NCBI RefSeq assembly: GCF_054482525.1
Contig: NZ_CM137006.1
Reading direction: 5' to 3' (one strand)
DNA: 64,000 nt
The position numbers were made by a program, and so were the translations under genes. This document shows positions 5,375 to 24,711 of this stretch, one piece after another; the stretch's first letter is position 1; each line of letters begins with the position of its first letter. The notes under the pieces were generated by a model. It had not been told where the DNA came from. It ran no database searches and was given only the letters and a program-made list of their open reading frames with translations.

Positions 5375-6532
5375 TTATTGTCCTGCGAGTTGCTGAAGGG
5401 CTGTGATGACGCGGTCGGCATCGGCGGTGGTCATATCCGGGAACAGCGGCAACGAACAGATGCGTTCGCTATTCCATTCGGTATTCGGTAACGACAGCGT
5501 GGGAAAACGCTCGCGATAATATTTTTGTGTGTGAGCGGCGCGGAAATGTAACCCGGTACCAATGCCTCTTTCTTTTAACGCTTCCATCAACGCATCGCGA
5601 CTGATACCACAACGTTGTTCATCGACACGAATAATAAACAGATGCCAGGCGTGAACGTGCGGCCAGGCGGGAAGGCTTAATGGCTGAAAGGGGAGAGCTG
5701 CCAGTGCTTGCTGATATTGCTGGGCAATTTCGCGCCGACGGGTGTTGAGGTGCTCTAATTTGGCTAACTGGGTCAGGGCAATCGCGGCGTTAATATCGGT
5801 CAGATTATACTTATAGCCCGGCGTTAAGACTTCAGCTTGCGGTGCACGGCCCCAGGTTTGTCTGTCATAGGCATCGACACCCAGACCGTGAAATTTTAGC
5901 ATCCGTAGCTGGCGGGCAAGGTTTTCATTATCAGTAACAATCAGGCCACCTTCCGCACAGGTAATATTTTTGATGGCGTGAAACGAAAAAATAGCGGTAC
6001 CTTTTGCGCCAATATGTCGGCCTTTGTAATACGTACCGACGGCATGGGCAGCATCTTCGATAACTGCGATGCCGTAACGTTCGCCAATGGCGCGAATGGC
6101 GTCAATATCTGCTGGCGCACCGGCATAATGCACCGGAATGATGGCTTTAGTGCGTGGCGTAATGGCTGACTCGATCGCTTCAGGCGTGACCATCAGCGTA
6201 TCGCGGTCGACATCCACCATTACCGGCGTTGCACCCAACAAGGAGATCATATTGAGGGTTGAAACCCAGGTCAGGGAAGGCGTAATCACTTCATCGCCCT
6301 TGCCAATTTCCAACGCCATTAGCGTGATATGCATTCCGGCGGTGGCTGAACTGACCGCGATGGCATGCTGATTTCCCGTCAACTGGCAAAAGGCTTGTTC
6401 AAGCGCCTGATTCTTCGGACCGGTTGTGATCCAACCGGATTCGAGAACCTCTTTAACTGCAGCGAGTTCCTCCACGCCCATTGCTGGTCGCGAAAAAGGC
6501 AAAAATTCTGACATTGCTTTTCCTTCCGCCAT
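5375..6532 (-). CDS. arnB: UDP-4-amino-4-deoxy-L-arabinose aminotransferase ArnB
   Basis: ORF 5375..6547 contains [28 protein letters not shown]...; start chosen at MAEGK, upstream in-frame start at 6547 also possible. Confidence 0.85.
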
Positions 6533-21882: not shown

Positions 21883-22102
21883 TGCTATTGCAGGATGGCG
21901 TTCATGCGCCATCCTCTGCTAAAACGAAATAATGCTACTACCGGTTATTCTTTTCATTAACCGGTGCATCCTGTTAAAAAAGATGCCAACATATTTGCGT
22001 AAAACTCATTCGTTAAGAAAGCTAACACTGGGCATTGTTATTCCTTAAACAGTATGAATTGGGTTCAATAATAAATTGTATTGCAGTTTATACTGTAAAG
22101 TA

Positions 22103-23173
22103 TTATTCGCATTTCGGAAAAGTAAAGAAAATATTAATGTATCTTATTAATTTATTATATTGTTCTTGAGTGAATGCTATTTGCACACCTTCAGGATAAT
22201 ATTCACCAGTAATAACCAGTTGTCCATTGCTGTGTTGTACCATTAAACCTTTTTTTTCCTTTGGATCTTCAAACTTAGAATTATCAAACGTGAAGATGTT
22301 ATTTTCCTGTTTTGAGTAAGCAAAGAAATCTCGTGTATAGCTGAAACTATCATTTATTAATGGTGCTAACTTTTTGTCGGCGATATCGATAAGCTCACCA
22401 CTTAATTTATTGATGTATTTCATTTGGTTCAATTTTTTCTGCGCTTGTACAATTTGCTTGTAGGTATTTTTAATTTCCTTAGAAGAATTCTTGAATTTAT
22501 CATAGCGTTCCACGGAGGATGCGTATTTGTACCATTCTGTATTTTTCTCAGAATGTAGTAGCAGGTCTGTATATTTTTTTTGATCGCTGTAAAGTTGACT
22601 TTTAATACTTTCCTCACTGCTGGTTTTATAAGGTTTATCAGAGCTGTTTATTTTTGAAATGTCTTTTTCTGTCGGTGACTGGACCGTGTTGTGGATATTT
22701 TCTTTTATAACATGTTCATTGATGATGTTAATTGCAGTTTCATATTCATTTAAGTTTATTGTTCTTTGTGAAATAAACCCTTCTTTGCTTTCGACACTCA
22801 AAATACCTTCGTTGTTTTCACCTCGGGTAAAGGTAAGGGTATAGGGTTCATAATCCGCTGCAAATTCATTTTTATACGTTATGACATGTTCGACAAAATG
22901 TCTTATTGGTACGAAACTATAACTGTGAACGTCAATTTTTTGGGTCTTGATACTATCAATTGCATCTGAGGCTTTCGTGAAAAAAGTCAATAAATTAGCT
23001 ATGCTGTCTGCTGAGGTTGATAACCCGTATCTACTTTGAGATATTTTTAGAAACTCATCGCAAAAAATCTCAAGTTTCGCGGTTTGTTGTGATTCTTTGT
23101 AAACTTCTGCTGGTTGCAATTTATTATTTTGTAAAATATTACCTCGAGATAAGTGAATAGATGTATTTGGCAT
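22103..23173 (-). CDS. Orphan hypothetical protein on AT-rich islet (about 356 aa, Lys/Asn/Glu/Tyr-rich, no signal peptide or TM segment evident)
   Basis: Long minus-strand ORF in a conspicuously AT-rich block between glpQ and yfaH; start placed at the ATG (MPNTSIHLSRG...) preceded by AAGGA; the track's longer ORF begins at a TTG 12 codons upstream. Confidence 0.6.
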   Translation of the reverse strand: MPNTSIHLSRGNILQNNKLQPAEVYKESQQTAKLEIFCDEFLKISQSRYGLSTSADSIANLLTFFTKASDAIDSIKTQKIDVHSYSFVPIRHFVEHVITYKNEFAADYEPYTLTFTRGENNEGILSVESKEGFISQRTINLNEYETAINIINEHVIKENIHNTVQSPTEKDISKINSSDKPYKTSSEESIKSQLYSDQKKYTDLLLHSEKNTEWYKYASSVERYDKFKNSSKEIKNTYKQIVQAQKKLNQMKYINKLSGELIDIADKKLAPLINDSFSYTRDFFAYSKQENNIFTFDNSKFEDPKEKKGLMVQHSNGQLVITGEYYPEGVQIAFTQEQYNKLIRYINIFFTFPKCE

Positions 23174-23638
23174 AAATGATTCCTTGTATTGTGAGTTAAC
23201 AAGATACAATTTAATCTTTGCAGAATATATTCACTATCAAATTTAGCTCATTTTATTACGAAGACCTTTACGCATGTTAGAAAGTATCATTATTGTTAAT
23301 AAATACGGTAATAAGTAACAAACAGATATTGATAACTTCCCTGACAAGTTATTAAGTATCCCACTTGAAGATTGAGAATGGCTCCAGAGTAAACTGTGTA
23401 CTGTTCGCCGGAGTGTCATTACTCTCAACAATCGGTTTTGACAGTGAGTCGGGCGCTTCATACCGGTTTCTACCTGGAGTCATTGTCACTTCTCCCAACT
23501 GGATAAATATATATCGCCAATTCACAAAGTGGGCCAAAATCAGGTGAAAACGAATTATTACGCCAGGTAAAGGCTATAGTACAACTAAGTGTGGCGAATC
23601 AGGCAGTCTTGCATTTGTCATCAATCTCATGTCTTACA

Positions 23639-23845
23639 TCAAATTTTTCCACTCACCACGAGTTGTTCCGTACACGTTTGTAGTAAAAACAGTGGACTGC
23701 CTTCTACCGGCTTTTCTTTAGCCAGCAACGAAATCTGTCGATAGAAGGTTGGTTCGAGAGGAACGGAACACAATTCACCTGCAATGGTTTTCAGCGTCAA
23801 CTCTGGTAATAAGGCGATGCCTAATCCCTGTCGAATAAAATTCAT
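23639..23845 (-). pseudogene. yfaH: yfaH: C-terminal remnant of a LysR-family regulator
   Basis: 68-aa ORF MNFIRQGLGIALLPELTLKTIAGELCSVPLEPTFYRQISLLAKEKP... resembles only the C-terminal end of a LysR substrate-binding domain. Confidence 0.55.
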
Positions 23846-24060
23846 CGCTGTATCCGCCTGATTAAATTCACATTTTATCTGCTGGGTGCACTATTAGTGG
23901 TAGTGGCTGGTGGAGTCTATGCGCTGCAAATGAAGGGTAAAAGCGGTGTCGCGCTAGTAGTGGCAAAAGAAATTCATTAATACGACACGTTTCATTAAGA
24001 TTTTTCGCAGGTAACCACCTATAGTCATTGTCGTAAATAAAAAATGACAGGCGATAGGGT

Positions 24061-24711
24061 ATGGCAGTTTCAGCAAAGCACGACGAATTTAATCACTGGT
24101 GGGCAACAGAGGGCGACTGGGTTGAAGAGCCTAACTATCGCCGTAATGGTATGAGCGGGGTGCAATGCGTCGAGCGCAACGGCAAAAAGCTATATGTAAA
24201 GCGCATGACGCATCATCTGTTTCATTCCGTACGTTATCCGTTCGGCCGACCAACGATTGTCCGTGAGGTTGCGGTAATTAAAGAACTGGAACGGGCTGGT
24301 GTCATCGTGCCGAAGATCGTTTTTGGTGAAGCGGTGAAAATTGAGGGGGAATGGCGCGCGTTGCTGGTGACTGAAGATATGGCGGGGTTCATCAGCATTG
24401 CTGACTGGTATGCCCAGCATGCAGTAACGCCCTATTCTGACGAAGTACGGCAAGCCATGTTGAAAGCAGTGGCGCTGGCGTTTAAGAAAATGCATAGCGT
24501 TAATCGTCAGCATGGCTGTTGCTATGTTCGCCATATCTATGTGAAAACAGAAGGTAAGGTAGAAGCTGGATTTCTTGATCTGGAGAAAAGTCGTCGCCGC
24601 TTGCGTCGCGATAAAGCGATTAATCATGACTTCCGCCAGCTGGAAAAATATCTGGAGCCGATCCCCAAAGCGGACTGGGAGCAGGTGAAAGCGTATTACT
24701 ACGCCATGTAA
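24061..24711 (+). CDS. inaA: Acid-inducible kinase-like protein InaA
   Basis: 216-aa ORF beginning MAVSAKHDEFNHWWATEGDWVEEPNYRRNGMSGVQCVERNGKKLYVKRM. Confidence 0.88.
   Translation: MAVSAKHDEFNHWWATEGDWVEEPNYRRNGMSGVQCVERNGKKLYVKRMTHHLFHSVRYPFGRPTIVREVAVIKELERAGVIVPKIVFGEAVKIEGEWRALLVTEDMAGFISIADWYAQHAVTPYSDEVRQAMLKAVALAFKKMHSVNRQHGCCYVRHIYVKTEGKVEAGFLDLEKSRRRLRRDKAINHDFRQLEKYLEPIPKADWEQVKAYYYAM

Follow-up and report, generated by a model that had tools for sequence, protein, structure and literature searches.

What is the short open reading frame that lies immediately upstream of inaA in Escherichia coli? In the 64,000-nucleotide stretch of contig NZ_CM137006.1 analysed here (the window), 51 codons stand open on the plus strand at 23825..23980, bounded by a TAA at 23822-23824 and, as the initial annotation of this DNA had described, by a second TAA at 23978..23980. 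That annotation offered two readings: the 3′ remnant of a membrane-protein gene disrupted when the LysR gene and the adjoining islet region were rearranged, or a small protein with a non-ATG start. The features on which the answer depends are as follows.

23639..23873, minus strand: C-terminal remnant of a LysR-family regulator gene, about residues 212-292, equivalent of the K-12 pseudogene yfaH (b2238)
23825..23875, plus strand: upstream 17 codons of the open frame, antisense to the LysR remnant (shown by alignment with the oppositely oriented LysR coding sequence)
23874..23881, no strand: deletion junction, 8-bp microhomology TTTATCTG
23876..23980, plus strand: 3′ remnant of an MFS_1 transporter gene, codons 363-396 plus TAA, identical to the end of the HR12-1 gene at 105/105 nt and 34/34 aa
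23981..24060, plus strand: spacer of 80 bp from the MFS stop to the inaA start, the same in intact alleles and unchanged by the deletion
24061..24711, plus strand: inaA, the intact downstream gene, given for context, a 216-aa ORF annotated as lipopolysaccharide kinase InaA

The open frame and its parent gene

The 51-codon frame translates as SLSNKIHRCIRLIKFTFYLLGALLVVVAGGVYALQMKGKSGVALVVAKEIH*, the peptide ending in ...FYLLGALLVVVAGGVYALQMKGKSGVALVVAKEIH. Its sole ATG encodes the internal Met at 23930, in agreement with the initial annotation, and its earliest GTG, at 23897, would open an ORF of 27 aa. The length of the frame is not above chance, with 532 stop-to-stop frames of at least 51 codons in the window compared with 540 ± 14 in shuffled sequence; its homology, in contrast, is far above chance. 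The last 34 residues of the peptide are the C-terminus of a 396-aa MFS transporter (pairwise BLASTP E = 1e-19) that itself ends in ...HTGYRMIYLLGALLVVVAGGVYALQMKGKSGVALVVAKEIH, and the corresponding nucleotides, 23876-23980, align with positions 6356-6460 of the intact locus of E. coli HR12-1 (L003). These 34 of 396 codons hold most of the last transmembrane helix and a 17-residue C-terminal tail, and it is because they derive from a transporter that the frame has gene-like codon usage and a hydrophobic helix. The full-length parent that the initial annotation had proposed to look for in E. coli genomes does exist: HR12-1 carries it at the syntenic position, as do about 1200 further complete genomes.

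A chance ORF with no gene history would be compatible with two of our observations: frames of this length are equally common in shuffled sequence, and the 51-aa peptide had no match in a Pfam scan, although the latter is expected of a piece with one helix. We nevertheless regard this explanation as refuted, since the 3′ end of a widely conserved MFS gene, resident at the same locus, is reproduced without a single nucleotide or amino acid difference, and 20/36 aa of the peptide are identical to the Klebsiella orthologue.

The transporter origin does not extend to the whole frame. The first 17 codons, 23825-23875, translate as SLSNKIHRCIRLIKFTF, which has no counterpart within the MFS protein, and lie antisense to LysR coding sequence. 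They never belonged to the transporter gene, and 23876-23980 is the only part of this frame that formerly coded.

In HR12-1 the intact allele comprises a LysR gene of 879 bp on the minus strand (292 aa) and a divergent MFS gene of 1191 bp on the plus strand (396 aa), and the intact pair was also seen in O157:H7 strains, O145:NM, E50 and RIVM_C039629. Residues 363-396 of the parent transporter (WP_000660225.1 in HR12-1, WP_000660231.1 in O157:H7) equal the remnant. Unlike the remnant, the parent is 396 aa long, has about 12 hydrophobic segments and possesses a promoter region, shared with the LysR gene. It matches PF07690 MFS_1 with E = 1.8e-59 and 201.8 bits (cut-off 33.4), and falls below every cut-off in NCBIfam, where the best model, PRK05122, scored 112 bits of the 374 needed. 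By Kyte-Doolittle hydropathy, hydrophobic segments extend over aa 13-379, the last of them (aa 361-379) overlapping the remnant; the count of 12 helices is approximate, as helix 11 is under the threshold used. The closest solved relatives are NorA (E = 4e-13, N-terminal half only) and a sugar efflux transporter (PDB 6kki, E = 2.5e-5), and source names for the protein are generic, either "MFS transporter" or "predicted arabinose efflux permease". Orthologues with about 85% protein identity occur in Salmonella enterica, Klebsiella and Kluyvera.

An 1880-bp deletion reaching from the LysR into the MFS gene

The window aligns to HR12-1 in two blocks that overlap by 13 nt, window 23200-23886 matching L003 3801-4486 and window 23874-24300 matching L003 6354-6780. 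The stretch missing between them, L003 4474-6353, is 1880 bp long. The intact allele has two copies of TTTATCTG, one within LysR and one within MFS, 1880 bp apart, and the window has a single copy, beyond which the junction homology continues imperfectly to 23887 (12/14 positions match). With this stretch the LysR gene lost 630 bp at its 5′ end (residues about 1-210) and the MFS gene lost codons 1-361, together with the 151-bp divergent promoter region that separates them; at the junction, MFS codon 362 changed from ATT (Ile) to TTT (Phe).

The ancestral locus carried, between glpQ and inaA, a LysR regulator gene and, divergent from it, the gene for the 396-aa, roughly 12-helix MFS_1 transporter. 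One deletion of 1880 bp between the two TTTATCTG copies, probably mediated by their microhomology, left both 3′ ends fused tail to tail on opposite strands, so that the present open frame consists of 34 transporter codons preceded by 17 antisense LysR codons that happen to be free of stops. Since the fragment itself lacks a promoter, a ribosome-binding site and a start codon, it most likely yields no product, to judge from its sequence, and persists as neutral DNA just upstream of inaA. Of this history, the homology, the end points of the deletion, its frequency among genomes and the synteny in other genera are shown, whereas the lack of expression and the role of microhomology are inferences. 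We found no evidence that contradicts the remnant reading, and are highly confident that the feature is a non-functional 3′ fragment of an MFS gene, left by a deletion that also hit LysR.

The other half of the scar supports a rearrangement that involved the LysR gene, as the initial annotation had supposed. Translated, the LysR remnant gives 82 aa that match residues 211-292 of the 292-aa intact protein at 90% identity (E = 4e-51). That parent contains both PF00126 HTH_1 (E = 5e-18) and PF03466 LysR_substrate (E = 9e-37), and its C-terminus matches NCBIfam NF007272, a 68-aa YfaH model; in the window the HTH is missing and just the last part of the substrate domain survives, so the remnant does not qualify as a LysR-type regulator. 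Among other alleles, the C-terminal part of the LysR gene is 95-97% identical at the nucleotide level, compared with about 78% for a second allele class carried by O145:NM FWSEC0002 and 2017.06.04CC (L013 460-1338, L001 2220-2885), in which the adjoining MFS 3′ end is still about 99% identical.

The islet named in the same claim is uninvolved. Between glpQ and the LysR remnant, at about 21900-23626, lies an AT-rich islet with a GC content of 0.29-0.35 compared with about 0.46-0.54 in its flanks. It contains an ORF of 368 aa (22103-23209, minus strand) without a Pfam family, which according to PGAP is frameshifted in PCN033 and intact, at 356 aa (WP_001301786.1), in strain 124. We rejected insertion of the islet as the cause of the disruption, as the islet and the deletion occur independently: HR12-1 has the islet together with intact genes, whereas K-12 has the deletion and lacks the islet.

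Distribution of the deletion and the ancestral state

A 181-bp query across the junction was searched in 5426 complete E. coli genomes, with coverage of at least 80% taken as a contiguous match. It was contiguous in 3131/5426 (58%), K-12 included, and had no match whatever in 1061 of the 5426. The MFS gene with its promoter region was present over at least 80% of its length in 1227/5426 genomes. Among the partial matches to this MFS and promoter query that were sampled, nearly all begin at query position 1236, equivalent to L003 6354.

Salmonella enterica and Klebsiella hold the pair, LysR on the minus and MFS on the plus strand, between the glp genes and yfaE-nrdB-nrdA. Since these genera retain it at this very site, the intact arrangement is the ancestral one, from which the E. 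coli states lacking the pair are derived. We therefore rejected the possibility that genomes lacking both genes represent the ancestral state. That the intact MFS gene might be a recent fusion built on the short ORF was likewise considered, and is argued against by the full-length, 85%-identical Salmonella and Klebsiella orthologues.

About 20% of complete E. coli genomes are of a type exemplified by SF-468 (L005 3898-4100), which has neither LysR nor MFS and a glpQ-inaA gap of 202 bp. About 70 nt of this spacer have no match in other alleles; some 19 nt ahead of the MFS stop the sequence becomes homologous again, at about 86% identity. The loss in SF-468-type genomes is apparently separate and older.

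Several further disruptions were seen at the locus. In O104:H4 an IS5-like element follows nt 82 of the remnant, little of the LysR piece is left in HH45, 2017.06.04CC has LysR and MFS disrupted by IS5 and IS1 insertions, and in two strains an internal stop in LysR accompanies an intact MFS gene.

Haplotypes around the junction

The remnant in the window does not differ from intact alleles at any of its 105 nt, but 3-8/105 nt are changed in the other deleted alleles, a pattern that needs either recombination or a second identical deletion. We compared window 23787-24300 with other alleles (L003, L004, L008-L011 and L016-L019). Just left of the shared junction, three linked variants (23841, 23843 and 23871) are found in all deleted alleles that retain the stretch, that of the window included, but in none of the sampled intact alleles that belong to the same LysR class; at 23857 and 23858, where intact alleles read GG, every deleted allele differs, three of them having A in place of C at 23858. 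On the right side of the junction, as well as at greater distance to its left, PCN033 shows 0-3 differences to intact alleles compared with 7-13 to other deleted alleles, the latter including a 1-bp indel at 24035. This mosaic suggests that the deletion arose once, a short recombination tract having then brought it onto an HR12-1-like background; otherwise it would have recurred at the same microhomology.

Could the remnant have acquired a function?

Two functional explanations compete with that of a neutral deletion scar. In the first, the remnant would have been recruited as a small membrane protein with a single helix (about 27-35 aa), whose translation would begin at GTG 23897 or another near-cognate codon on a transcript reading into inaA. 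In its favour, all eight alleles with the deletion that could be read over the full 105 nt keep the frame open, 58% of complete genomes have the junction allele, and the peptide, with a basic tail behind its hydrophobic helix, is built like many known small membrane proteins. An open frame in eight alleles is, however, what chance predicts for a stretch of 35 codons at about 4% divergence, and recent common ancestry accounts fully for the conservation. The deleted lineages have also accumulated amino acid changes (V to I, A to T or K, V to A); the sites available for comparing synonymous with replacement changes are few, and the same tail positions vary in intact genes too (A to M and V to A in E50).

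Nothing that would drive expression was found. The promoter region, ribosome-binding site and start codon of the original gene went with the deletion; GTG 23897 and ATG 23930 both lack a preceding Shine-Dalgarno motif; and a scan of 23600-24120 for promoter-like or terminator-like sites returned none, so that the start codon, ribosome-binding site and promoter of a functional small ORF are not found together here. The remnant is interrupted by the IS element in O104:H4 and absent from about 20% of genomes, and the curated annotation of K-12, which lists very small proteins nearby (YoaM, with a 36-nt CDS), has none at this site. We consider co-option as a small protein exceedingly improbable, and the suggestion of a non-ATG start in the initial annotation has no support, on the same grounds: candidate starts without a Shine-Dalgarno motif, a deleted promoter region, and insertion or absence in other strains. 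There is barely any likelihood, in our view, that a non-canonical start on an inaA-leader or read-through transcript allows translation of the 34-codon tail, to give a small single-pass inner-membrane peptide in the roughly 58% of sampled complete genomes that carry the deletion allele; if true, this would be a small protein born from a pseudogene fragment.

The second explanation is that the 105 bp are not neutral but have been retained as cis-regulatory sequence for inaA, as activator sites or part of its promoter. The remnant lies 81-185 bp upstream of the inaA start codon, with no terminator-like site between the MFS stop and inaA, and inaA is activated by MarA, SoxS and Rob (PMC5257004). 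Against this, the marbox consensus had no match with two or fewer mismatches near inaA, its count across the whole window being at chance (17 compared with 18), and the right end of the deletion is already accounted for by microhomology. Even in SF-468, which lacks LysR and MFS, homology is kept from about 19 nt before the MFS stop to the inaA ATG. Genomes of this type share only that region and yet have an intact inaA; the common inaA upstream region is therefore roughly the 100 bp nearest the gene. A cis-regulatory role of the remnant is thus unlikely, and we would give it only slightly more weight than the small protein.

Two further observations concern inaA itself. In Salmonella and Klebsiella (L020, L021, L022) the MFS gene directly abuts yfaE with no inaA between them (compare window 24061-24711), which places the insertion of inaA at this locus on the E. 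coli side. In intact E. coli alleles, a 19-nt direct repeat, TGACAGGCG(G/A)TAGGGTATG, spans the ribosome-binding site and start codon of both MFS and inaA with 18/19 positions identical (L003 5254-5272 and 6525-6543; window 24045-24063), and the MFS genes of Salmonella and Klebsiella lack this upstream sequence. The repeat may record the way in which inaA arrived behind the MFS gene in E. coli.

Relation to existing annotation

Window 23400-24100 is 100% identical to the chromosome of E. coli PCN033, for which RefSeq gives the order glpQ, a frameshifted hypothetical gene in the AT-rich stretch, a partial LysR pseudogene, a partial hypothetical protein and inaA. PGAP places the LysR pseudogene at window 23639-23887 on the minus strand, and describes 23876-23980 on the plus strand as a "hypothetical protein, incomplete, missing N-terminus". 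This record (PPECC33_RS29155 in PCN033) and its RefSeq equivalents in E. coli cover the same DNA with the same coordinates and reach the same verdict of a truncated gene. They differ from our account in leaving the parent unnamed, whereas here it is the MFS transporter that adjoins inaA, and the deletion is mapped to the base.

K-12 MG1655 has the same junction, but between inaA and glpQ only the LysR piece is annotated, as pseudogene yfaH (b2238). This is the other half of the same deletion scar, on the opposite strand, and the MFS remnant, whose K-12 position is NC_000913.3 complement(2349552..2349656), is absent from the K-12 record. A literature search on "yfaH" returned it only as a marker insertion site or as a table entry of uncharacterised proteins; the site has been used to place a linked selectable marker in strain construction (PMC2714960). 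The feature upstream of inaA is an ordinary truncated pseudogene, already flagged by RefSeq, and the unlisted partner of K-12 yfaH.

Conclusions

The frame is settled as a deletion scar rather than an overlooked gene, and needs no pursuit as a small-protein candidate. Of minor use to annotators is that a fragment called "hypothetical protein, incomplete" by RefSeq, and unlisted in K-12, now has a named parent. For the biology of the species, likewise of minor use, K-12 and most complete E. coli genomes lack a LysR-MFS pair which about a quarter of E. coli genomes still have, as do Salmonella and Klebsiella.
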